From positions 1 through 26,676 of IMG/VR virus record IMGVR_UViG_3300030330_001737: a DNA stretch of 26,676 nt. The stretch is one strand, 5' to 3'. Position 1 is the stretch's first letter; each line of letters begins with the position of its first letter. Both the position numbers and the translations under genes were made by a program. The notes below the pieces were generated by a model, which was not told where the DNA came from, made no database searches, and saw only the letters and a list, made by a program, of their open reading frames with translations. This DNA is from a virus. Its lineage: Duplodnaviria > Caudoviricetes. This document shows, one piece after another, positions 4,688 through 26,676 of the stretch.

Positions 4688-5017
4688 TTATTTCTTGCCG
4701 AACTTTTGCTTCTGAGATTTAGGTGGACTCTTTCTGCTACCCCCCTTGCTCCAGAAAAGCTTGTCTGCCCAGAAAGCAGCAGATGTTTTGCCCTTTTTTA
4801 TATTTTTGGCATGGCGTGCTTTGAAGCTTTTACGTGCCTCATCGCTGTAGTTGTGTCCCATCTTCTGATCACCGAATCGGATGATCTTCATCTTGCTACC
4901 GTCCCTGACAGCAACGACACCTTTCTTGGTGGGGTGGTTAGGCGTTCTCTTTGGCTTGTTTAAACCCTTCAAGCCTACCTTTTTCAGCCTGTTTTTTTCA
5001 GCATCTGTCAAACTCAT
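4688..5017 (-). CDS. Highly basic small viral protein (DUF6321-like, from recall)
   Basis: KIIRFGD..M..ARKSFKARH..SAAFWA..W motif; Lys-rich; ATGA overlap with the preceding gene. Confidence 0.8.
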   Translation of the reverse strand: MSLTDAEKNRLKKVGLKGLNKPKRTPNHPTKKGVVAVRDGSKMKIIRFGDQKMGHNYSDEARKSFKARHAKNIKKGKTSAAFWADKLFWSKGGSRKSPPKSQKQKFGKK

Positions 5018-5256
5018 TTGCGATACCTCGCTGTTTTCTTGGCAATCTTCTTGGGTTGTGCGCTGAACTGCTTGCCCTTCTTGGTATCCTTTCTTTTCTT
5101 GCGGGATGTAGCTGCGTATTCCTTAGCAGACAAGGACTTGATGGCTTTAGTAGGTAGGTATCTTTCCCCTGTCTTGGCACTAGGCTTGCCCGACTTGGTT
5201 CTCCATTTCTGTTTCGTCCACTTCTTGAGGGACTTCTGTGACTTTTTGAGAGCCAT
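5014..5256 (-). CDS. Highly basic small protein resembling the C-terminal half of DUF5872
   Basis: QKSLKKWTKQKWRTKSGK..ERYLP motif; TAATG overlap with the preceding gene. Confidence 0.8.
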   Translation of the reverse strand: MALKKSQKSLKKWTKQKWRTKSGKPSAKTGERYLPTKAIKSLSAKEYAATSRKKRKDTKKGKQFSAQPKKIAKKTARYRK

Positions 5257-5378
5257 TATTTTTTCTTCTTCTTCTTACCTTTGTTTAGTTTATCGAAGTC
5301 GGCTTTGGTAATCTTATCTCTGGGCTTCGCTACTCTCGCTAGCTTTTTCTGCTTGGGGCTGTACTTCTTGAACGGCAT
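5256..5378 (-). CDS. 40-aa Lys-rich peptide absent from the ORF track (MPFKKYSPKQKKLARVAKPRDKITKADFDKLNKGKKKKKK)
   Basis: Translated by hand; GGAGG RBS, then TTTAAAC, then ATG; its TAA overlaps the next ATG; it fills the gap in the operon. Confidence 0.8.
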   Translation of the reverse strand: MPFKKYSPKQKKLARVAKPRDKITKADFDKLNKGKKKKKK

Positions 5379-5389
5379 GTTTAAACCTC

Positions 5390-5677
5390 CTAACGTTTCT
5401 TTGCGTTTGCTCTGCGTATTGCCTCTTTACCTTTCTTCGCTATCTCTGCTTGCTTGTTTTTGCCAGCTACCTTGGCCCTCTGTTCGAGCACAGTGAGGAT
5501 CTGGATCTTTCTAGCGAATGGCTTCTTAATGTTCTTAACTTTCCTTACAGTGTCTCTAGCGTCCTTCTCAGTGGCGAATTTTATACTGACGGTATCCTTG
5601 GGGTTCTCATCTGTATACAGCCGTCTGCCCGATCCCTTGGGCTTCTTGCCTGTCCCTTTCTTGGGATCTTTGCTCAC
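5390..5677 (-). CDS. Highly basic small viral protein
   Basis: RLYTDENPKDTV.IKF.T..DA..TV..KIQI..VLEQRA; ATGA overlap with the preceding gene. Confidence 0.82.
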   Translation of the reverse strand: MSKDPKKGTGKKPKGSGRRLYTDENPKDTVSIKFATEKDARDTVRKVKNIKKPFARKIQILTVLEQRAKVAGKNKQAEIAKKGKEAIRRANAKKR

Positions 5678-5889
5678 GACCTATAGCCCCCACCTTTCTC
5701 CTTGTATCTCTTAGCCAGCATCTGAGCTTTCCTTGCGCTCCATTGTCCCGGCTTTCCACCCTTGCCACTCGCTTTGATAGACTCGAACAATCTCTTTCTC
5801 ATAGCTGGTTTTGTATAGTTGCCAGCTTCGTTAACGCGAGACTTGCTCTTCTTTTTTACCTTACCGCCCTTCTTAAATCGCCTAAACAT
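5674..5889 (-). CDS. Highly basic small protein resembling the N-terminal half of DUF5872
   Basis: YTKP..R..IK..KGGKPGQWSARKAQMLAK.YK..GGGY motif; ATG 5889 preceded by AGGTGA. Confidence 0.82.
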   Translation of the reverse strand: MFRRFKKGGKVKKKSKSRVNEAGNYTKPAMRKRLFESIKASGKGGKPGQWSARKAQMLAKRYKEKGGGYRS

Positions 5890-5918
5890 TACTATCACCT
5901 ACCACTAATGTTGTGTAC

Positions 5919-6362
5919 TCAAACAGATTCCCAAGGTTTACCTTCAAACAATAATGCCTCTGCTTGCCTACGCCTTATAAGACCATCCAACACCTGACCG
6001 CCTGCACGATTCCATCTTTTAATTTGCTCTGGCACACCGCCATAATTGCGTTCATTTAAAACTTTAAGCATAGTAGATTCTCTCAGATTCCCCTCACCTA
6101 AATTAAACGTCCAAGCAACTAAAGCATCAAATTGATTTTGTTCTAGCTCAACTTTCACTAGTCGGTCAACTGCCTCCTCGAATACACCTAAATCATCTTT
6201 AAGCATATCTTCTGCCTCTTCCTGAGTGCAGGTGTCTCCATCCTTTACGCCTAGCGTATGACCGTAACCTATAGTCAATACTCCAGCTGAACACTGATAA
6301 CTGCTTAACTCACAGCCTTCAAACTTTTTTATTAATGCAATACCCTCTTCACTCGTTTTCAT
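5919..6362 (-). CDS. Endolysin, GH24 (T4 lysozyme-like) muramidase
   Basis: GIALIKKFEG..Y.C.AG..TIGYGH, QNQFDALV..FNLG.G and W..AGG..L.GL..RR..E; ATG 6362 follows AGGAG. Confidence 0.95.
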   Translation of the reverse strand: MKTSEEGIALIKKFEGCELSSYQCSAGVLTIGYGHTLGVKDGDTCTQEEAEDMLKDDLGVFEEAVDRLVKVELEQNQFDALVAWTFNLGEGNLRESTMLKVLNERNYGGVPEQIKRWNRAGGQVLDGLIRRRQAEALLFEGKPWESV

Positions 6363-6720
6363 CTTCGCTCTCCTTGGTATCTGCGCTGCGGTAATACTCA
6401 ACGATGGATAATACCTGTCGAATATAACGCTTAACTTCTGCCATATTATACGAAAGATTTTCATAACCTTTTGTACTTAATCCATAAAACGCATTCGTCG
6501 GTGCGTTACCCTGCTCAAGATCTGCTAAGTATTCACCCATCGTTTGAGGTGTCAATACAACCCACTCAACAGGCATAGTAGTAACTTTGTTGGGTAGCGG
6601 AGGGTGATACACAGGAGCTTGTTCTACTACCGTAACAACCTCTACAGGCTTTACTTCTGGCAATCGTTCTTGCCATGAACATCCACTAAGTAGTAGGAGT
6701 GGTAATAGTTTCCAACTCAT
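6349..6720 (-). CDS. Outer-membrane spanin lipoprotein (o-spanin, Rz1-like)
   Basis: Signal peptide II MSWKLLPLLLLSG-C (lipobox) followed by a Pro-rich segment; overlaps the 3' end of the i-spanin gene. Confidence 0.78.
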   Translation of the reverse strand: MSWKLLPLLLLSGCSWQERLPEVKPVEVVTVVEQAPVYHPPLPNKVTTMPVEWVVLTPQTMGEYLADLEQGNAPTNAFYGLSTKGYENLSYNMAEVKRYIRQVLSIVEYYRSADTKESEDENE

Positions 6721-7084
6721 TAAGCACCTGCTTAGTTCCACGATTAATTATATTTTCTATTAGCTTTGGTTTCCGCAATGAAAGCACATCCATATTGTGC
6801 TTCGAGAACTTTTTTCTGATCTCTTCAACTTCCTCCAACGCCTTCTGATTTTCTACGGTAAGTGCGGATATACGCTCTAATACAATTTTGTTTTTTTCTT
6901 TTTGATCTAATAGCTGTTGATTCTGTTCAGCTATATTTTTTTCTAACAACTCCTGATTATCTATAGCTAGTTCTAGCTTAGTTTGCAGCTCACGTTTCTG
7001 TGCCTCTGCCTTGTCATAATAGGACTTAAAGCCACCTACCAAAACCAACATCAAAATACCGCTACCTATGACTAACTGCCACAT
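6686..7084 (-). CDS. Inner-membrane spanin (i-spanin, Rz-like)
   Basis: N-terminal TM helix plus a long coiled coil; adjacent to a lipoprotein gene and the endolysin. Confidence 0.75.
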   Translation of the reverse strand: MWQLVIGSGILMLVLVGGFKSYYDKAEAQKRELQTKLELAIDNQELLEKNIAEQNQQLLDQKEKNKIVLERISALTVENQKALEEVEEIRKKFSKHNMDVLSLRKPKLIENIINRGTKQVLNELETITTPTT

Positions 7085-10000
7085 TATCCATCTGTTCCAA
7101 ACTTAGCAGCACGTTCAGCCTCTTGGTCTTGTCTTCTTAAATTACGCATAATTCTAGTTGTGGTCTGACCACTACGGGTAAGCTCCCGTATCTTGGCTCC
7201 GTATGAATCAAGTACACGCTTATAGTTGTTTAAACGCCTCATTCTTTCTTCGCGAGACAGGCTTTGATCCCGCGCCACCGAGTTCATAGCTGCCATAATA
7301 TTGCTTTTCTCACGCTCGATATATGACAGTGATATCTGTATCTGTAGAGGATCTATATTCGATAGGTTCAATCCTATGAAGCGCAACAGAGACTGATTAA
7401 TCGTATCCGTTTCCAGACCATTAGGCTTGGTATTGCCACCTAATGCAGTGTAAAGCTTTGATACTGCACCATATTCTGTATTTAAAAATCCCGGTAAAAT
7501 GTATTGATTCGCTGCCCAGAATAAAACATCTGTTAACTGACCGCGATTGTAAAAGGGACGCTCTATTGCATCTGATATAAAGAATGGATCACTTGGATTT
7601 ACAATAGGTCTTTGTGTAAATGGATCTAGGTTTTGTGATAAGCCAAACAATGACCATGCTGGCCCCCCAAACATACCCAAAGTAGATGTGACATCTTTGA
7701 TATCAAACCCTTTTTCTGCTGGCCCTTTGTTACCTACCAATGATTTACCAGCAATAGCAGCGTCAGATATAAGCTGAGAGAAAGATCCCCACGGATACAG
7801 GTATGCAGTATCCAAAAACTGTAATCGACCTTCTGAATCACGAACAGGTATAGGTATCATGCCGGGGTTGCCACGCAAATAATCTGGCAAAGAACTCTTA
7901 ACATCCTCGTACTCTTCATCATCTATATCAAACGCCGACATAAACAATGACGGTAAGGCATAAGACAAGGCGACATATGGAGCAAATCTCATAGGATTGC
8001 GAAGCGCAGTTTTAATTAGTGCAGGTAATACCTTATATTGGAATGTAAGAAACGGTATACCCAATGGGCTTTGTCGTATTTTACGAACTACCTGTGGCAC
8101 ATCGGAGTAATCAAACAGGTATTCTTGTGCTCGTAAGAAGCCATCATCTGCACTGAGTCCCTCTCGCTCCATAACATCTATATTGATAGCTGTCTTGCCT
8201 ATAACTTCTATGCCCTGATAAACCTTGCTGGCTTTTTGAGCTAACTTCTGCCATGTGTTGAGCTTCAACCAACCATACATACCTATATCTTTGGCATCGA
8301 CAGAACTTAAAAAGTCCATCATATCGTCAGCCATCTGCATAAGTTCTTGATCTGTAAAGGATGTTTGCTGTACACCCCGTTTCAACATCTCTGCATAGTG
8401 CTTAGAGTTCTCAAAGTCACCACGGTTATATGCTCTTACCTCATTGATGGCTTCTACGAATCTAGGTATAACTCTGTAAAATGGCACGCCAGAAAGATGC
8501 ATCAGTATGGCGTTACTAAATAAGTTTCTAGCTATAGTCGGCGGGTTCAACGGTACTTTAATTGTCTTCCAAATCGCTGTAAGCTCACGACCCTTCGAGG
8601 CAATACCCTGCACAGCAGCATCACCTAGCTGCAACATAGCTCCTGACGCTATAACATCATCGAATATCTCTGTTCTGACCAAACGCCCGGACAACAACCC
8701 ATACTTCTTGTTTTTCGGAACACGTTTAAACTGATCGCCGTAGCCCTGTATCTCTGCTGCAAATCCGGCATCATCTAATTGTTCGTAGTATTCTAATGGC
8801 TGTAGTCCTTTAGCTATAAATGCATCTCTAACAGCGTTCTCCATCTCTACTGCATCTTGGGTTAGCTTCGCTGCTTTATCAGGGTCAGCTGCACTAAGCG
8901 CATCTGCTATTTCTCGCAGTGTTCTAGCCTCATTGGTTAGATAGAAACCGCTGACCTTAATTGGCTCACCATTCTTGCCTATGTAATCCACAACAAACTG
9001 GTCATCTGCGGTAGTCCAAGCATCGTTACCCGCAATCGAGTTCATAAACTCTATAAACTGTAAGTCTCGTATGGGTCTTTGTATGGCTCGTGATACTAAA
9101 AATGCAGGGTCTAGCTCGTTTATTACGCCAAGAGACTCTTGCGACTCTTTTGTCATATCTTTACGAGGTTTAAGATAGCTGAATGCTGCGTCTCTCTTGT
9201 CTTCTAGTACGTGTTTTATGTATATACGGGGCAGATATGACCTTTTATTTGCGAAGAATGTGCGAGGATTTAGAAGCCCTTTATTGACCAGCTCCAACCC
9301 TAAATTTTCTATCAGATCTTTGGCCTTTTCTGATGCAGCTGCTGCTCTAGGATCTAATGCTTTAAGTTGTGCCAGAACATTTGCTTCTGCATCTGGCTCA
9401 CCAGTAGTCAGATAGTTAAATATAGTGGTTCTTAACTGCTCTGTATCAGCACGATCCTTCGGCCCTTTTTTGAACAAGAATTTATTGCCTATCTCATCGC
9501 GCAAAAACTCGGCAACTTTGGTAGATCTACCCACCGTACCCAAATACTCAGCACGACTCAGGTAAAACTCACGCTTTTGTGGCAAACCGCCAAGAGTGTT
9601 AAAGAACGGAATGTTATTGACATAGTTAATAGCTTTCTGTCTACCATTCTTCATCACGCCACGAAGGTTTTCTGTTCCATGATTAGTGACAGCAGCAGCT
9701 TCATTCTGCTTTTGTGCGTAATATATTTCTGTTGACTCTATAAGTTTGTCAGACACCCTCATATCGTCGGTAATTTCGTATACCTTTAGCGCATTACGCT
9801 GATTAGAAGTACCCAAAAAATAGTTTTCACTGGTAACTTTTAGCTCTTCTTCAAATCCCTCTTGTTCTCTAGCAAGATTCTCTTCTTCTATATCTGCTGT
9901 TTCTTTTTGTAATCTTCGCAAAAGATTCAAATCCTGTTCGGCTATGCTGCCAGCTAAAGGTATGACCCTAGCAGGTTGTTCCTCCAGCTCTGACAACTCT

Positions 10001-13000
10001 ATTATCTTTGCCGACTCTATATTGTTAGGATCAATACTCCCTAAATATAATCTTTTATTAGAATTATCTGCCCTCAACTTTTTCTTGGCATTTTTAATCT
10101 GTGAGGATGAGTTACCAAGTAAATTAGCTAAACTTGCCTCTAATATTTGAGGCACTTTTTTATCATATAAATTTTCAAACCCAGAGCCTGTTGGATAATC
10201 TATTGCGCCTGTTACTCGGCTCCTCATATCCTTGATTTCGGGAATGTTTAATAAAGATTCTGACTCTAATTGTTCTGGTGTAAGCTCCTGTCCACTCTCT
10301 TTCTGTGTGCGCAAAGCCTCTAATTCAATGTATCTTTCTTGGAGCTTGGATAATAGATCTGGCGCAAAATAACTACCCGTATCCTTCATTTCATCTCTAA
10401 TAATTTTGGCAGTGTTATCACCTAAAAACTCATCTAAGGTTGGATTATAATCGACCGTTTGGATTTGATTATCCCCAACAGCAATTGGTCTTTGATCTCC
10501 AAGCGTTACCACATTAGATAGGACAGATGTTTTTTGTAATTGATTGTTTTCAAATCTGACTATTGGAACGGTATAAGAAACAGTAAATGCATTGGCTATG
10601 TTTGGATATTTCCTTGTCATAACATCAGAGAAAGCTCTAGCAAAAATAGCGTGAGATAATTTAGTTACTGAATCATCAGAAACATCAACCTCCTCAGTAA
10701 ACTCTTTTTCAAATGAGTTCTTCAAACTCTGTGAATATCTTATTGCTGACACACGACCTAGCGTTCCATCTAGATCCTTTAATGACATTTCAAATAACAT
10801 ATTGGCTTGTGACTTAGCGCGACCAATAACGTTTTGAGAAAACTCGCCTGACACAGCATCAACATATTCTGTGCTCGTTTCTGATAAAGGCACACCCCCT
10901 AACTGTCTCGCTGTATCAGTCAGACCTTCTTCGTCTATTGTTGGAACTTCGGCTAAATACGCTAATCTATCTATCTGATTTATTATTTCATCAGATGTAA
11001 TAATCATTTCTAATGGCTGGTCATCCACAAAATATTCTTTAGCCTCTATAACAAGAGCATTGCTATTTCCTATAACTGTGGTTTCTACAGAATGATTATA
11101 ATTTTCCATAAAATCATCTAAAGAGAATGTTCTTTCGATGTTTATCCCATCAATATGTTCTTTTAAATTATCTCGATATCTTTCTTTGTGGCCCTCACTA
11201 CCCACTACTGCAATTCGGTCATAACCATTTTGCACAGCCATTCTTGTAATTTGATCTAAGGCAAAAGCAAGCCTTTGATTTTCATTTTTTAAGGGCAGAT
11301 TTGGTATCTCTTTTCCGTAAACCTCGTCTTTGTAATTATTTTGTTCTTGTCGTACTAAGTTTTTTTCTGTTCTGTTTAAACGATCAAAACTAGGATATGA
11401 AATATCTCCATACGAATACAAATCGGATGCTGCTAATGCTCTCATTCTCTCTTGTGCGTATTGATGCAAGTCAGATTGTATTTCTTCTATAACTAATACA
11501 ACCTCACCATTATCTAAAACATAATCACTAAGCCTAGCGTGGAGGATTGGATTAATAACATCCTTGAAATGAGAGTGCGTAAAGATTGTTCCAAGAGGAT
11601 TATCTACAGTCGCAGCTAATATAATTTCTCTGTAGTTGTATTGAGTTAATGGCTTAATGTCATCTGTCGGATCTGGTATATTAGAAACAAAATCCCGTCC
11701 ACCCATTTGGGTATATCGTTTATAAAACCCTTCGCCTAAAGATTGATTATCTGAATAGCGAACATCAAAAGGTTTTTCACTACCTACAGGAGTTTGTTGT
11801 CCAATTGGTCTGCCAAAATCCATCAAACCAGAACCTGTCACATCAGTAGCTCTAGGAAAGGTTTGAGCATCTTTAGGTGACGATTCTGTATCAACCAACA
11901 TTTGCCCAAAGTTTCTAAGGCTCAAAACATTCTTGGGATCTTGTATATCACGATTCAGCTTTTTAACTATTTCACGATGCAACTTTCTTTCTTGCTCACT
12001 AAATGGAGCTACTTCGCTAAATTGATTTTTAAAATCAAGATTTATTTTATTGATATCTGAAATAACATCTTCGCTAAATATATTGTTGTTGATATTTGGA
12101 TTAGGAGATCCATTTGCGAAGGTATTAACAATTTCTTTTAATGCGCTTAATGTGCCTTTATCCTCTAATCCATTCTTAGCTAAACGCAAAGAACTCAAAG
12201 CTATTTTTCCAACTTCTTCATAAGCCAAGTCATTTCTTTCTGATTGGATTGCCTCTCTATATGTCGCCTCTCCTCGTGTGTCCTCATTGCCTTGCCTAGA
12301 TATAGGAGTTCCGTATATTTGTATTTCTAATACCTGCTCTGTTTCTGACACATAATCTTCTAAATCTTTACCAGATACAGACTTGTCAGTTGGCAACGTA
12401 GCTAAATAAGTACCTAGTCCAGAGTCATTGAACTCTTCAATTTTTATTCCTTTTAACTTACCTGCCAGCTCTGCTTTGCCTTGTTTATTAGTTATTACCT
12501 TTGCCCAAGCTTCTGGCAACGCTTTATCATTAGATTGATTTTGTAATGTGCGCTTTAGTTTAGAATGGAATGACGGACGCATACCTGTGCTGGCTGCGAT
12601 TGGCCCCTGCTTTAACATGAAAAGCGGTGTTGTTGGGGATAATCCAGATGTATCTAATGACGGGCCTATTTTTTGGCGCAGATTTCTAACTGGCCCCGCA
12701 TCAGGTGTTCGCGTACCGACACGACCTTGACGAACCTGATTAAATATATCTTCTATCTCTGCTGGCAAACGCTCACCCGTAAAAGCTGCCCTAAGCTGTT
12801 TAAACAGTTTAAGAAGCTTGCTGAATATACGGCGCAGCGGTGGATTAAACTCTGCTGGAACCTTGCCATCTATATCTAGGCCACGGTTATACAAAGCAGA
12901 CGAGTATGCAACCAGCTCATTTAGCTGCTGGAATGGATTAAGACCGTCCATAGCCCTGTTAAACTCTTTATCTCCAAGCTGTCTGCGTACTATGTCTTGC

Positions 13001-16000
13001 ATACGCCCAACATTAGCTTGTAGATCTTTCAGCTCTTGTGCATTAAAGAAACCGTTGTTGAATAAGAAGTGTGTTGCTTCGTGATATGCGCGGTTGTTGG
13101 TATCTAAGAAGCCATCTGTTGTTAGAGATACGGCAACGAGATTGCCAGCCTGTAATCCTAACGCTTCCTGCATTGGAACTTGCGCACCGTTTATTTCAAC
13201 CGTCTGTAAGTTGGGATCATCCATTGACCTAGCAGGGCCAAACAGCTGTGAGGCAACTTCTATCCTAGCTGTTGGGGCAATAGACTTAATGACCTGCACA
13301 ACTCTGTTAAACTCGTTGATATCAAGTGGTGCTTTGGATTTAACAACACCCGGCCCTAGCTCAGTCATTGTGCCAGCAACCATTTCTCCAGCTACAGGCT
13401 GACCAGTTTTTAAGGCGAAGTCTAAATCTGTAGCCTGATCAACAGCATCTAAGTATTCATCAGCGGAGGAAAAAGCGTTCCTAGCAGAGTCGTGATCCAT
13501 GCCACCCTGTCTGTATTCGTTATACAGTTTTAGGGCAAGACCCATGACAGCAGGGTCTGCTTTACCCACATCAGCTGTAACATCATCTGCGATATCAGCC
13601 TTTTCTTTTGTAGATAAAACAGTCTTAGGTTCTTTCTTTAGTTTGCGCTTAGTCTTTTTTTCTTTCTTTGCAACCTCTTCTTGTGTCGTTTCTTGCTCTG
13701 TTCTTGGGTTGATTTGAGGTACTGAAAAAACAGGTTTATCTGCTGCTCTCGCAGCTTCTCCTTGTTCTTTAACCTTCGATCTAACATCTTGTCCTAATTC
13801 ACGAATAGTATTTTCTGAAAGATTAAGGCCAGTACGTCGATAATAATCTATCAACTCCCCCATAATTTCTTGATCAGCTTTAGATCTGCTGCGGGGATTA
13901 CCTACAATGTATAAAGCCTTATCTAGTAACGAATCAAATACAGGGGTTTCATCTCTATATTTTGGCTTAGATTTTTCTACACGATCAGATATAAATTTGT
14001 CGGTAGTAGGCTCGTCTTGTATCTCTTCTTCTACTACCTCTTCTTCTACAACTTCTTCTGTGGCCTCTGTCTCTGGAGGTCGCGCATCTTTTGCCTCTTG
14101 CTGTGCAGATGCAGCTGCTGCTGCCTCTTCGATAGCTTGCTTGCGACCCTCTTCACGAAGCTTATTCTCAGCTTCTTCCTGCTTTCTTTGCTCGTTTAAA
14201 CGCTTTTTAGTTTGTTGGTGCTGCTGCACTACATCCAATAGATCTATCTTCTGCTGGTTGGTCAACTGTGCTAGATCTGTATCAGGGCTTCCTGTTACCT
14301 GTTGTATATAATTCTTTCTATCTTTCTTGCTTACCTTTTGTTTCTTTATCTCTCTTTCGATAGCAGATGTTTCTATCTGTGTTTGTAGAGTCTCTGATTC
14401 TTCACCTGTTAAAGCAGCCCTGCCCAATACTGTTGTAGGATTAGGCTCGTTTATAAGTCCACTCAGGGTCTGTTCGATATTGTCTGATAGGTCGCCACTA
14501 TCTACAGCCTCGGTAGTTTCAGCGTCTTGTAATATGCTTGCGACACCAACTTCTACATTAGATTTATAGTCTGGGTTGCGCCTTTCTTTTTCTTTCTCTA
14601 CTGCCTTGAGGTTATATACGCTATCAGGCTTGGCTTGTGCCTGTGCTTTGTCGCCCTGTTGTGTAGCTTTGATCGCATCCTTGAGAGTGATGTTGCCAGC
14701 CTCAACCTGTGGCAATAACTCTGGCGATACGAATGGCTTTAGCCCTTCTTCGTAAAGCTCTTGTGTAGTCATCTCTCCTACAGCTTTATCGTTGATGCGA
14801 TATTTAGGACTAAGCAAATCAGCATCACTAGCAAACGACAGTCCAGTGTCGGGATCTACCGTCTGATTCTTGGGCAGATAGGCTATATCCTCGTCGTTAA
14901 TTAATACTTTGACCTTATCGCCTTCTACGCCTAGTACTTGCGCTTGCTGCATATTGCCATCTGCATCGTATACAGATATTGGCTGCTCACTCTGCTGCAT
15001 CTCTGCAAGCTGTTCATCTGACAGAGCGGGTAAATCTGGTGCAGACTCAAGCTCTTGACGTAGCTGCTTTTCAGATTTGGGATATTTAACTTTGCCACGT
15101 ACCAGCAAATCAAAGATCGCACCTGCACCAGCACCATAACCAAAGTCTGACAACATACTGTCAGTCAATGGCATATCAGGATCATAGTTATTTTGGGCTG
15201 CAAACTTTTGCAAGAACCCTGCAACTAATTCCTGACCGCCTTCAGCTATACCTGTAGTAGATGCTTCGGACAGTCGCCTTACTACCTGACTCTTTACATT
15301 CTGCCCGATAGTTTTGGGTATACCACGGAGAACCATCTCTACTGGCAAGAGTTCTAAGAATCCTATCGGTACACCTAACGCTATAGCTAGATTACGTTGC
15401 CCTACCGTGTAATCGTTGCCAGCTGCTTTGTATGCTTCTATCAGTGAGCTTGCTTCACCAGCCCCAACACCCGGCGCAAAAGCACCGTACTGTATGCCTT
15501 TCAATCCCTTAGCTAACTTGTTGACGCGAGTAGCTGCTGCTGCATATTCGCTGCCCTTAGCTGCAAGTGCTGCCCCTCTGCTGGCTGCTCCAGCTGCCCC
15601 TAATCCGGGTACAGCAAATAGCAGTATGCTTCCTAGAGCCTCTGCCAGTTTGCCTACGACAGTCTCTTCATTGCCTACGAAAGCTTTTGCTTCTTGTAAT
15701 GCCTTGAATGCTTCTGATGACTCAGGATCTAGCGCATCCTCAAAGCCAGCTACATTAGTTACGGTGTCTGCTATTGAAAATAAACCCTCACCGATAGTAA
15801 GTGCAGTTTGGCCTACACCTCTAGCTATGCCTCTTGGTACAGCCAGTAATGGGTTTTGGCTTTCTTCTTCTGGCGGGGCTATAGGTTCTGGCAAGAATCC
15901 TGTGCCAAATCCAGCAAATAAATCGACCGCTTGCTCTGGGGGTGAGGCAGGTTGCGGTGGCACAGCTGCCTGTGATTGGGAGATCGGGGCTTGTGACGCT

Positions 16001-16167
16001 GCGCCAGCCGCAAAACTTCCCGGCTGTATAGGTGCTAACTGCTCATATACAGGTCGGAACTGGCTTCGTGGTTGTCTAAATACAGGGGCATCAAACTGTG
16101 AGCCTTGTCTATACGGGCCTTGTAAAGTCTGTATAAGCCTTTGTATTCGCTCTTCTTGTGTAGCCAT
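7084..16167 (-). CDS. Giant (3027 aa) internal virion / polyvalent-type protein with a zincin HExxH domain, an EEIQSD domain and an LPD38-like C-terminus
   Basis: HEATH at 13069-13083 with a downstream Glu (NELVA); YREI..HF..HARL..VLVIEEIQSDLHQ near 11461-11640; C-terminal FDYS..PFLTF..LP.Y; last gene of the ejection-protein block. Confidence 0.85.
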   Translation of the reverse strand: MATQEERIQRLIQTLQGPYRQGSQFDAPVFRQPRSQFRPVYEQLAPIQPGSFAAGAASQAPISQSQAAVPPQPASPPEQAVDLFAGFGTGFLPEPIAPPEEESQNPLLAVPRGIARGVGQTALTIGEGLFSIADTVTNVAGFEDALDPESSEAFKALQEAKAFVGNEETVVGKLAEALGSILLFAVPGLGAAGAASRGAALAAKGSEYAAAATRVNKLAKGLKGIQYGAFAPGVGAGEASSLIEAYKAAGNDYTVGQRNLAIALGVPIGFLELLPVEMVLRGIPKTIGQNVKSQVVRRLSEASTTGIAEGGQELVAGFLQKFAAQNNYDPDMPLTDSMLSDFGYGAGAGAIFDLLVRGKVKYPKSEKQLRQELESAPDLPALSDEQLAEMQQSEQPISVYDADGNMQQAQVLGVEGDKVKVLINDEDIAYLPKNQTVDPDTGLSFASDADLLSPKYRINDKAVGEMTTQELYEEGLKPFVSPELLPQVEAGNITLKDAIKATQQGDKAQAQAKPDSVYNLKAVEKEKERRNPDYKSNVEVGVASILQDAETTEAVDSGDLSDNIEQTLSGLINEPNPTTVLGRAALTGEESETLQTQIETSAIEREIKKQKVSKKDRKNYIQQVTGSPDTDLAQLTNQQKIDLLDVVQQHQQTKKRLNEQRKQEEAENKLREEGRKQAIEEAAAAASAQQEAKDARPPETEATEEVVEEEVVEEEIQDEPTTDKFISDRVEKSKPKYRDETPVFDSLLDKALYIVGNPRSRSKADQEIMGELIDYYRRTGLNLSENTIRELGQDVRSKVKEQGEAARAADKPVFSVPQINPRTEQETTQEEVAKKEKKTKRKLKKEPKTVLSTKEKADIADDVTADVGKADPAVMGLALKLYNEYRQGGMDHDSARNAFSSADEYLDAVDQATDLDFALKTGQPVAGEMVAGTMTELGPGVVKSKAPLDINEFNRVVQVIKSIAPTARIEVASQLFGPARSMDDPNLQTVEINGAQVPMQEALGLQAGNLVAVSLTTDGFLDTNNRAYHEATHFLFNNGFFNAQELKDLQANVGRMQDIVRRQLGDKEFNRAMDGLNPFQQLNELVAYSSALYNRGLDIDGKVPAEFNPPLRRIFSKLLKLFKQLRAAFTGERLPAEIEDIFNQVRQGRVGTRTPDAGPVRNLRQKIGPSLDTSGLSPTTPLFMLKQGPIAASTGMRPSFHSKLKRTLQNQSNDKALPEAWAKVITNKQGKAELAGKLKGIKIEEFNDSGLGTYLATLPTDKSVSGKDLEDYVSETEQVLEIQIYGTPISRQGNEDTRGEATYREAIQSERNDLAYEEVGKIALSSLRLAKNGLEDKGTLSALKEIVNTFANGSPNPNINNNIFSEDVISDINKINLDFKNQFSEVAPFSEQERKLHREIVKKLNRDIQDPKNVLSLRNFGQMLVDTESSPKDAQTFPRATDVTGSGLMDFGRPIGQQTPVGSEKPFDVRYSDNQSLGEGFYKRYTQMGGRDFVSNIPDPTDDIKPLTQYNYREIILAATVDNPLGTIFTHSHFKDVINPILHARLSDYVLDNGEVVLVIEEIQSDLHQYAQERMRALAASDLYSYGDISYPSFDRLNRTEKNLVRQEQNNYKDEVYGKEIPNLPLKNENQRLAFALDQITRMAVQNGYDRIAVVGSEGHKERYRDNLKEHIDGINIERTFSLDDFMENYNHSVETTVIGNSNALVIEAKEYFVDDQPLEMIITSDEIINQIDRLAYLAEVPTIDEEGLTDTARQLGGVPLSETSTEYVDAVSGEFSQNVIGRAKSQANMLFEMSLKDLDGTLGRVSAIRYSQSLKNSFEKEFTEEVDVSDDSVTKLSHAIFARAFSDVMTRKYPNIANAFTVSYTVPIVRFENNQLQKTSVLSNVVTLGDQRPIAVGDNQIQTVDYNPTLDEFLGDNTAKIIRDEMKDTGSYFAPDLLSKLQERYIELEALRTQKESGQELTPEQLESESLLNIPEIKDMRSRVTGAIDYPTGSGFENLYDKKVPQILEASLANLLGNSSSQIKNAKKKLRADNSNKRLYLGSIDPNNIESAKIIELSELEEQPARVIPLAGSIAEQDLNLLRRLQKETADIEEENLAREQEGFEEELKVTSENYFLGTSNQRNALKVYEITDDMRVSDKLIESTEIYYAQKQNEAAAVTNHGTENLRGVMKNGRQKAINYVNNIPFFNTLGGLPQKREFYLSRAEYLGTVGRSTKVAEFLRDEIGNKFLFKKGPKDRADTEQLRTTIFNYLTTGEPDAEANVLAQLKALDPRAAAASEKAKDLIENLGLELVNKGLLNPRTFFANKRSYLPRIYIKHVLEDKRDAAFSYLKPRKDMTKESQESLGVINELDPAFLVSRAIQRPIRDLQFIEFMNSIAGNDAWTTADDQFVVDYIGKNGEPIKVSGFYLTNEARTLREIADALSAADPDKAAKLTQDAVEMENAVRDAFIAKGLQPLEYYEQLDDAGFAAEIQGYGDQFKRVPKNKKYGLLSGRLVRTEIFDDVIASGAMLQLGDAAVQGIASKGRELTAIWKTIKVPLNPPTIARNLFSNAILMHLSGVPFYRVIPRFVEAINEVRAYNRGDFENSKHYAEMLKRGVQQTSFTDQELMQMADDMMDFLSSVDAKDIGMYGWLKLNTWQKLAQKASKVYQGIEVIGKTAINIDVMEREGLSADDGFLRAQEYLFDYSDVPQVVRKIRQSPLGIPFLTFQYKVLPALIKTALRNPMRFAPYVALSYALPSLFMSAFDIDDEEYEDVKSSLPDYLRGNPGMIPIPVRDSEGRLQFLDTAYLYPWGSFSQLISDAAIAGKSLVGNKGPAEKGFDIKDVTSTLGMFGGPAWSLFGLSQNLDPFTQRPIVNPSDPFFISDAIERPFYNRGQLTDVLFWAANQYILPGFLNTEYGAVSKLYTALGGNTKPNGLETDTINQSLLRFIGLNLSNIDPLQIQISLSYIEREKSNIMAAMNSVARDQSLSREERMRRLNNYKRVLDSYGAKIRELTRSGQTTTRIMRNLRRQDQEAERAAKFGTDG

Positions 16168-25723: not shown

Positions 25724-25948
25724 CTATACAGTAACCAAAATGTTTTGACCTGTGGCTTTTGGCGTAGTGTAACTAAAAGCTCCATTCTTGTAGGTATATA
25801 CTTTAGAGTCGTAATAGGTGGTTATCACCTCACTCTTCCTATTAGTCTCTCGCACATGCAATCTTTCTACTTCTATTTTTTGTATCTGATGTTTTGCATT
25901 TGGTGGCTGTGCTTGCACACTATTTGGAAAAGGCGGTATGTCAGTCAT
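25724..25948 (-). CDS. Hypothetical protein
   Basis: 74-aa ORF abutting both neighbours on the operon strand. Confidence 0.65.
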   Translation of the reverse strand: MTDIPPFPNSVQAQPPNAKHQIQKIEVERLHVRETNRKSEVITTYYDSKVYTYKNGAFSYTTPKATGQNILVTV

Positions 25949-26204
25949 CGTCTTTATTTGTTCTCTTTGGATCTCTAAATATATATTTGCCTTTACCTGC
26001 CTCTGCTTGTGGTATTAGCCTTACCTCACAAAAACCATCAAACTTATTTGTTTTAGATCTTGTCCAATTATGTTGATGAACACTTTGGTGAACTAAAGCA
26101 TCTCTATATTCTAAACAGGAAGTAAGTTCTTGGAAATAAAGCTCTACCCCTGTTGGGACACCGCCGGGAGTCAATAACACCAAAACAAAGATCATAAGAG
26201 TCAT
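25941..26204 (-). CDS. Hypothetical protein with a hydrophobic N-terminus and two Cys
   Basis: 87-aa ORF with an ATGA overlap at 26201-26204. Confidence 0.7.
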   Translation of the reverse strand: MTLMIFVLVLLTPGGVPTGVELYFQELTSCLEYRDALVHQSVHQHNWTRSKTNKFDGFCEVRLIPQAEAGKGKYIFRDPKRTNKDDD

Positions 26205-26644
26205 AATCTTCTTTTCTTAGTCATTGCTTGTGTTCTTTCAGCTTGAGGGGCAACAAGTTCCCATGTTAAAACATCAACATCAACTTGATGAGCTGTGCCT
26301 AACACCCTTGGCATACTATTTCTAATATAGATATACGCCCCATACCCGCACTGTTGATAATTAAATCGCAACCACTCCATTGCAATGGCATGTCGTTTAG
26401 CTGGTGGATTTACAAGCTGAAGCTTATTCCACTCCCTTAAATCACAAAACAGATTAGGATTTTCGGGGTCGTATTCTAATCTTACTGTTTCTGAAGCATT
26501 ATCTGGATTAATTGCGCCAGCTTCTCGTCCGTCGCCTTCAAAGTTTCCTGCTGTTGACTCAGACTGTCCACCACTGCTTTGATTTGCGTCTGATTGACCG
26601 CTGACAGTTGCCCGTTGGCTACTGCCTGTTCCGCTGTCTTTTTT
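26201..26644 (-). CDS. Open frame lacking a good start codon; candidate -1 frameshift extension of the upstream gene
   Basis: Frame open 26653 to 26201; first ATG only at 26380 with no RBS; its stop overlaps the next ATG (ATGA); slippery A_AAA_AAG at 26644-26638. Confidence 0.6.
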   Translation of the reverse strand, partial: KKDSGTGSSQRATVSGQSDANQSSGGQSESTAGNFEGDGREAGAINPDNASETVRLEYDPENPNLFCDLREWNKLQLVNPPAKRHAIAMEWLRFNYQQCGYGAYIYIRNSMPRVLGTAHQVDVDVLTWELVAPQAERTQAMTKKRRL

Positions 26645-26676
26645 ACAGCTTGCTCAATCCTTTGAACTTCTGCATC
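26482..26676 (-). CDS. C-terminal part of a coiled-coil protein, truncated by the window edge
   Basis: Translated by hand: DAEVQRIEQAVKKTAEQAVANGQLSAVNQTQIKAVVDSLSQQQETLKATDEKLAQLIQIMLQKQ*. Confidence 0.75.
   Translation of the reverse strand, partial: DAEVQRIEQAVKKTAEQAVANGQLSAVNQTQIKAVVDSLSQQQETLKATDEKLAQLIQIMLQKQ

Follow-up and report, generated by a model that had tools for sequence, protein, structure and literature searches.

The window analysed here is an entire contig of 26,676 bases, and the locus of interest lies on its minus strand at the contig end (26676). The window encodes an ERF-like annealing protein, an exonuclease, an endolysin, two Rz-like spanins and a virion structural protein. 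Because this structural protein is 31–37% like the stabilization proteins of DSL-LC04, CRP-901/902 and HTVC023P/027P, the sequence suggests a marine podovirus-like phage. The sequencing runs holding the stretch are marine metagenomes, no RNA run holding it was found among the 20 runs listed, and a one-genome-per-species search returned a single locus, inside a metagenome-assembled bin. At the contig end, a small gene (gene A) is followed in the −1 frame by a start-less domain (domain B), with the following features:

26482–26676, minus strand: 3′ part of gene A in the 0 frame, 64 codons and TAA, a predicted coiled coil (pN/pS and alignment with relatives).
26658–26663, minus strand: AAAGGA, weakly Shine-Dalgarno-like and 13 nt upstream of the heptamer, a possible stimulator that is missing in some relatives.
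26654–26656, minus strand: TGA that lies three codons upstream of the site and closes the −1 frame (sequence).
26638–26644, minus strand: predicted −1 shift site, heptamer A_AAA_AAG, read as GTA AAA AAG (sequence and family survey).
26603–26626, minus strand: 9-bp hairpin, 11 nt after the heptamer, a possible stimulator present only in the window's lineage.
26483–26638, minus strand: dual-coding overlap, stop-free in the −1 frame, which encodes a 52-residue Ser/Gly-rich linker (19 of 52 residues S or G).
26201–26485, minus strand: domain B, start-less, in the −1 frame, with two conserved Cys (26446 and 26350) and four predicted helices (pN/pS 0.13, pLDDT 84).
25941–26204, minus strand: next gene, 87 aa, with a hydrophobic N-terminus and two Cys, its ATG overlapping the stop of B (in 96/100 A+B loci).

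The first 37 codons of gene A are lost beyond the contig end, and near-identical relatives give a full length of 101 aa. The hydrophobic segment and A-x-A motif of the gene, known from relatives, fall in the lost part.

An earlier note on this DNA had proposed a programmed −1 frameshift at A_AAA_AAG, and its reading of the window was correct. The 0 frame GTA AAA AAG puts the heptamer (26644–26638) in phase. After the TGA at 26656–26654 the −1 frame is open for 150 codons (26653–26201), its stop overlaps the ATG at 26204, and its first ATG, GTG or TTG, at 26380, lies beyond the first Cys of the domain. The Ser/Gly linker followed by a folded-looking two-Cys domain is likewise borne out by the residue composition and the structure model listed above. 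The heptamer alone is unremarkable, with 7 in-frame copies per 7,451 codons of the window's minus-strand ORFs. Synonymous re-coding of the window's 52 downstream codons puts the chance of an open −1 frame at 0.007–0.014. The GTA and AAA-AAG or AAG codons of the site are invariant in 37 close relatives. Concerning a read error in the A run, which the earlier note had considered, no indel is listed there, and contigs from three of the four runs cover the A run with no other letter either.

For the family survey, a search with B yielded 79 viral loci and searches with gene A added more (two of these giving the best 80 of 200 and the best 80 of 95). Once duplicates and loci that break off ahead of A's stop had been removed, the matches listed comprised 120 distinct copies of gene A, the window included. 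B follows gene A in 111/120 of these copies among the matches listed, and the offset is the −1 frame in 111/111. The dual open frames are found in the relatives with B, as the −1 frame is open in all 98 full-length A+B copies among the matches listed, for 37–93 codons before A's stop. In the 9 listed copies without B, it is open for just 0–15 codons, with 2–7 stops in the last 42 codons.

Site types were counted in 99 copies, namely the 98 full-length A+B copies and the window. The common types were A_AAA_AAG (24), G_GGA_AAA (22), G_GTA_AAG (21) and G_GGA_AAG (19), and the rarer ones A_AAA_AAC (8), T_GTA_AAG (3), A_AAA_AAA (1) and G_GCA_AAG (1). A strict heptamer is present in 95/99 copies with B, the others being the G_GCA_AAG copy and the three T_GTA_AAG copies, vs 0/9 without B, at a background of 52 per 48,259 codons; the generic NNA_AAG is still present in 6/9 copies without B. 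A slippery site is present in every relative with the domain, but only 24/99 have exactly A_AAA_AAG. The site lies, depending on the lineage, at codon 47–51, 54–58 or 72 of gene A, and the −1 frame opens at most 12 codons from it in 91/99. The motif list was drawn up from the first 68 loci and later widened, and the sole independent test is a held-out set of 53 further loci found via divergent B proteins. Duplicates account for 10 of these and truncated or incompletely parsed loci for 9, which leaves 34 new full copies. In all 34 the −1 frame is open, for 52–131 codons, with a strict heptamer in 27 and G_GCA_AAG in 7.

Some lineage-specific observations accompany the survey. GTA_AAG at codon 45 persists in L032, L058 and L063–L071, where other lineages have their site, and a −1 stop comes next; in this lineage the open frame is entered from G_GGA_AAG at codon 54, and the codon-45 GTA_AAG is possibly a relic of an older site. 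On the gene A tree, whose bootstrap had not converged, 2 changes are needed for the presence or absence of B, which may reflect either gain or loss. Two near-identical gene A copies (L219 and L220) lie about 3 kb apart on one viral contig. Directly upstream of a gene-A copy without B are two ORFs (L219:493-1195) which we take to resemble IscA and IscU of iron-sulfur cluster assembly.

Codon choice points to selection on both frames. T-ending synonymous choices that create a −1 stop number 0/944 after the site vs 322/777 before it, with control values of 57/110 in copies without B and 4,287/10,459 in other genes, and 0/277 vs 102/269 in the held-out copies; these pooled counts overstate independence because sequences within lineages are related. 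When one copy was taken from each of seven lineages that are 20–68% alike, the frame was open in all, at a chance of 0.005–0.14 each. Among the 37 close relatives, the two halves of gene A have pN/pS values of 0.13 and 0.03 and B has 0.13, whereas the DNA of B gives 1.29 when translated in the alternative frame; the linker has no residue-level conservation. At fourfold sites before GY codons, a purine was found in 441/491 cases after the site vs 257/702 before it, and such purines give linker Ser or Gly, not Cys or Arg. As other fourfold sites lean likewise, though more weakly (432/667 vs 862/1,557), this bias is supporting, not decisive, evidence.

Two single-member database proteins, P0005 and P0019, are in-frame A::B fusions with A's first 68–73 residues joined to B, and might raise the suspicion that a single gene carries an indel from sequencing or assembly, or that it is a pseudogene in decay. 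However, these fusions are deletions with different junctions, not single-base repairs. The same offset recurs in 111/111 copies from many assemblies among the matches listed, no indel is listed in the A run, and both C-terminal alternatives are under purifying selection. The conserved two-frame layout refutes the indel or pseudogene reading, whose probability we regard as practically negligible. P0005 and P0019 themselves may be natural hard-wired long forms or assembly errors. From these sequence comparisons, we consider a conserved −1 frameshift in gene A highly probable.

Domain B appears to have no start of its own. Homologues do not begin near Met 26380, the position singled out by the earlier note, since a Met is found there in 38/99 only. 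Between the site and B's first Cys, ATG, GTG and TTG are absent in 91/99 copies, and neither a start nor a hydrophobic segment of B was found before its first Cys. Gene callers record just B fragments of 59–79 aa from internal Met codons, and because of this the A+B family is mis-annotated. B could alternatively be a separate gene, translated from a near-cognate start or by re-initiation at A's stop, with the open −1 frame caused in some other way. Its conserved sequence indeed begins at A's stop, 2–13 codons before the first Cys, the linker is free of residue-level conservation, and a TTG lies two codons before the Cys in 8/99. Against this, the codon at A's stop varies (GTA, ATA, CTA), no near-cognate codon occupies a position common to more than 25/99, and a separately translated B would be without an export signal. 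A separate gene would also leave unexplained the 0/944 stop-creating choices, which lie 29–53 codons upstream, and the heptamers that track the opening of the frame. We therefore consider a separately started B very improbable.

Stimulatory elements are variable. The 9-bp hairpin described in the earlier note, 11 nt after the heptamer, does occur in the predicted structure, but it is limited to one lineage, not conserved and not unusually stable (folding z of the window −0.79 for 78 nt and −2.3 for 60 nt). Among 39 copies of the window's lineage, 13 keep 9/9 pairs, 16 keep 8, and 10 keep 7 or fewer. Other lineages fold differently and weakly after the site, with a mean folding z of −1.85 to +0.3 in the larger groups, and folding of the 60 nt after each site, without pseudoknots, gave no conserved stem-loop or pseudoknot. 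Shine-Dalgarno-like matches 4–17 nt upstream are present in several lineages and absent in others.

According to the part of PMC5009743 that deals with site strength, A_AAA_AAG, like G_GGA_AAG, is highly shift-prone in E. coli, A_AAA_AAC and A_AAA_AAA are much weaker than A_AAA_AAG, NNA_AAG sites shift at a low level, and the ratio of lambda G to GT is 30:1. For G_GGA_AAA or the T_GTA_AAG hexamer as a shift site, no precedent was found in the literature consulted. Because of the published E. coli site strengths and the lambda G:GT ratio, a low shift efficiency is likely by analogy. Fusion of the two frames might also come about during transcription, through slippage on the A run, or through other recoding at the same place (a +2 shift or a hop). 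The window has a run of six A, and sequence comparison is blind to the level at which the frame changes. Many relatives, however, have just three or four A (G_GTA_AAG, G_GGA_AAR, G_GCA_AAG), and the sites fit the patterns of tRNA re-pairing, so that we consider these other routes very improbable.

Gene A encodes a protein of about 100 aa with a 17-residue hydrophobic segment (mean hydropathy 1.4–2.1) and an n-region with little positive charge. An A-x-A motif follows the segment in 52/52 distinct N-termini, the export call being made from hydropathy and motif only, in A-rich sequence where A-x-A is easy to find. The remainder is a heptad-rich helix, read by eye as a coiled coil. The slip falls at residue 49–74 of about 100 in the family. 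A longer product, as the earlier note had envisaged, is predicted (about 195 vs 101 residues), but the slip in the window is mid-gene (codon 49–50 of 101), so the C-terminus would be replaced and not extended. Likewise, two products are predicted as foreseen, but they would not be a short and a long coiled-coil isoform, for the long form is without the last 51 residues of the coiled coil. Across the family, the predicted long form of 185–195 aa keeps the N-terminus of A and has the C-terminal helix replaced by linker and B.

A first structure model of B had a pLDDT of 48 and was set aside; the second, used here, has four helices and a pLDDT of 84, and the two Cys are nearly invariant. Neither A nor B could be placed in a Pfam or PHROG family, the scans showing nothing beyond weak coiled-coil noise; the ESM Atlas gave no usable match for B or a stand-alone relative, and PDB sequence searches returned nothing for B or for the single-TM partner described below. 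Compared with the PDB, the B model had no clear match, the best Foldseek E being 1.9 and the best VIA Z 5.8 (generic helical repeats), and in a viral library only three uncharacterised phage proteins of 90–103 aa stood out.

Several known systems resemble parts of this arrangement. The lambda gpG/gpGT pair, as described in part of PMC5009743, is also a phage −1 slip giving short and long products with a common N-terminus, and G_GGA_AAG, used in gpG/gpGT-type genes, is the site in the 19/99 A+B relatives counted above. In contrast to lambda, where GT contains nearly all of G, the slip in gene A is mid-gene and replaces half the protein, and gene A has a hydrophobic N-terminus. A tail assembly chaperone was rejected because gene A is flanked not by major tail and tape-measure genes but by tail-fibre genes, holin-like genes and structural genes of podovirus type. 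The view of the earlier note that the context is unlike that of a tail-chaperone or capsid gene was upheld, as neighbours and gene A family scans fit neither. The E. coli dnaX and IS-element sites (PMC5009743, in part) share the heptamer with the window and the A_AAG core with most relatives, and the window has weak upstream Shine-Dalgarno-like and downstream hairpin candidates. A shift-prone site in the correct phase is present in 99/99 and 34/34 full A+B relatives, together with a selected open −1 frame without its own start. Differences from dnaX and the IS elements are that no stimulator is conserved, that site sequence and position vary by lineage, and that the products are predicted envelope proteins.

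Ig-like domains added by frameshifting to capsid or tail proteins, reported in part of PMC5009743 for T3, A2, A118, A500 and PSA, are comparable in that a mobile domain, known also from genes without a frameshift, is made out of frame behind an upstream gene. This assignment was rejected as well: B is predicted to be all-helical with two Cys and replaces rather than extends, and gene A has no capsid or tail family match. Overlapped two-component spanins, in which a TM and coiled-coil gene is overlapped by a −1-frame envelope gene (PMC6139136, in part), show a similar layout. This identity too was discarded: B is without the start and the lipoprotein signal that the o-spanin described there has of its own, and a separate spanin pair is encoded in the window at 6349–7084.

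B is homologous to stand-alone proteins of 90–115 aa (hhalign 97.6%, and 98.5% with E 1.6e-15), and the stand-alone profile matches B once in each of two frameshift genomes (E 4.5e-12 and 3e-10). A hydrophobic, signal-like N-terminus is present in 21/21 aligned stand-alone B proteins, whose genes sit in lysis cassettes. In 33/36 loci the stand-alone B adjoins a single-TM protein of 214 aa whose C-terminal domain is large; B lies directly downstream of the single-TM gene in 32, two loci are cut and one is without it. The single-TM protein is unannotated and belongs to phrog_31287 (L297–L332, e.g. L297:1001-1911; NC_026611.1 gp77; NC_028773.1 gp076). In Edwardsiella phage GF-2 a homologue occupies the place of the holin, with Q on one side and the endolysin on the other; in Cronobacter phage S13, which is T4-like, the homologue is listed as a hypothetical gene. 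A search of five near-complete frameshift phages, run without a positive control, did not detect this partner family.

The stand-alone B proteins recall antiholin RI beside holin T of T4 in being small signal-peptide proteins encoded next to a single-TM gene (PMC11413866, in part). Neither RI nor T had a sequence or fold match among the matches listed, and RI was not among the listed PDB structure matches. The likeness of the single-TM partner to holin T is presumably one of architecture and serves as a lead only; phrog_31287 is possibly an unrecognised T-like holin with its partner. Because the stand-alone relatives carry their own signal-like segment, the simplest reading is that B needs export and here borrows the signal of A, which the sequences make probable. 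A lysis-accessory role of the A and B products is our best guess, with the chances about evenly balanced, and an antiholin role of B, suggested by analogy, is a weaker guess.

The gene setting bears on this role. The A+B genes are placed between tail-fibre genes and the structural block, with tail-fibre and small membrane genes upstream of gene A and small genes, a holin and a stabilization protein downstream. A 3-TM holin homologue lies inside the fetched flanks of 71/100 A+B loci and 4/9 loci without B; no such match was found near gene A in the window, where the endolysin and spanins are 19 kb from gene A. Alternatively, with the frameshift real, the N-terminus of A could be an uncleaved membrane anchor or a virion-assembly element, and the products without any role in export or lysis. 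The position of the genes beside the structural block, the n-region with its little positive charge and the failure of A and B to match a Pfam or PHROG family above the coiled-coil noise would all suit an anchor or virion element. The signal-like N-termini of the stand-alone B relatives in lysis cassettes and the holin homologue in 71/100 A+B loci speak against it, and we think it unlikely.

The next gene starts at or overlaps B's stop in 90/99 copies. Its Shine-Dalgarno interaction is weak (median −1.5 vs −8.65 kcal/mol for gene A), which is not specific, since other late genes of the window also have weak Shine-Dalgarno sequences. Translational coupling of the next gene to B's stop is likely, and expression further downstream may likewise be metered by the slip. 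Two small, conserved, unannotated genes (25724–25948 and 25941–26204 in the window, minus strand) travel with B: they occur in 74 and 96 of 100 A+B loci, respectively, and in 0/9 loci without B at the same cut-off.

Taken as a whole, the best explanation of the sequence data, and in our judgement probably the right one, is a mid-gene slip by which one predicted export signal would head two products. A fraction of ribosomes would slip back one base at the mid-gene site of gene A, presumably through re-pairing of tRNA-Lys at A_AAG or X_XXA_AAN. Two products with a shared predicted export signal would result, a 101-residue coiled-coil protein and a form of about 195 residues with the linker and the two-Cys, four-helix domain. 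Both would be exported via the N-terminal hydrophobic segment and A-x-A motif of A; the long form would be made at a fixed minority ratio, B may contain a disulfide, and translation of the next gene would be coupled to termination at B's stop. In the least certain step, both products would serve as accessories of lysis within the cell envelope. This explanation is supported by the site, by the −1 frame that stays open, by the selection on both frames, by the start-less B and by the stand-alone B relatives with their own signal peptide. A more far-reaching proposal, to which we would give somewhat less than an even chance, is that a once stand-alone secreted protein of the lysis cassette has given up its signal peptide along with its start, so that a −1 slip, which borrows the export signal of the upstream gene, is now the only route to it. 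The slip would then fix how much of each of two periplasmic proteins is made and, by way of coupling at B's stop, meter the downstream genes; the arrangement would have persisted although the site moved along the gene at least twice.

No paper on the A/B family was found in the literature searched (listings and abstract starts); related cases may be tabulated in the supplements of PRFect (PMC10885494) and of the spanin survey (PMC6139136). As a kind of mechanism this is known already, and the case is a real variant of it, a conserved phage −1 frameshift that proved to be neither a tail chaperone nor an Ig-like extension nor a spanin. The phage frameshifts treated in the consulted part of PMC5009743 are those of tail chaperones and capsid or tail extensions, whereas gene A is a small envelope-type gene of uncultured marine phages with a domain swap behind a common N-terminus. 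The family offers a natural series of sites (A_AAA_AAG, A_AAA_AAA, A_AAA_AAC, G_GGA_AAR, G_GTA_AAG, G_GCA_AAG) together with domain-less negative controls, and thus a test set for the evolution of shift sites and for how weak a functional bacterial site can be. If true, the borrowing of an export signal would be a case in which recoding serves to share a signal and to control lysis, in a group of marine podoviruses that is abundant.

Two further features of the window, both on the minus strand, lie outside the A+B locus. Four small, very lysine-rich ORFs follow the endolysin at 4688–5898. A 3,027-aa ORF at 7084–16167, without a PHROG or Pfam family, probably encodes an internal virion or ejection protein.
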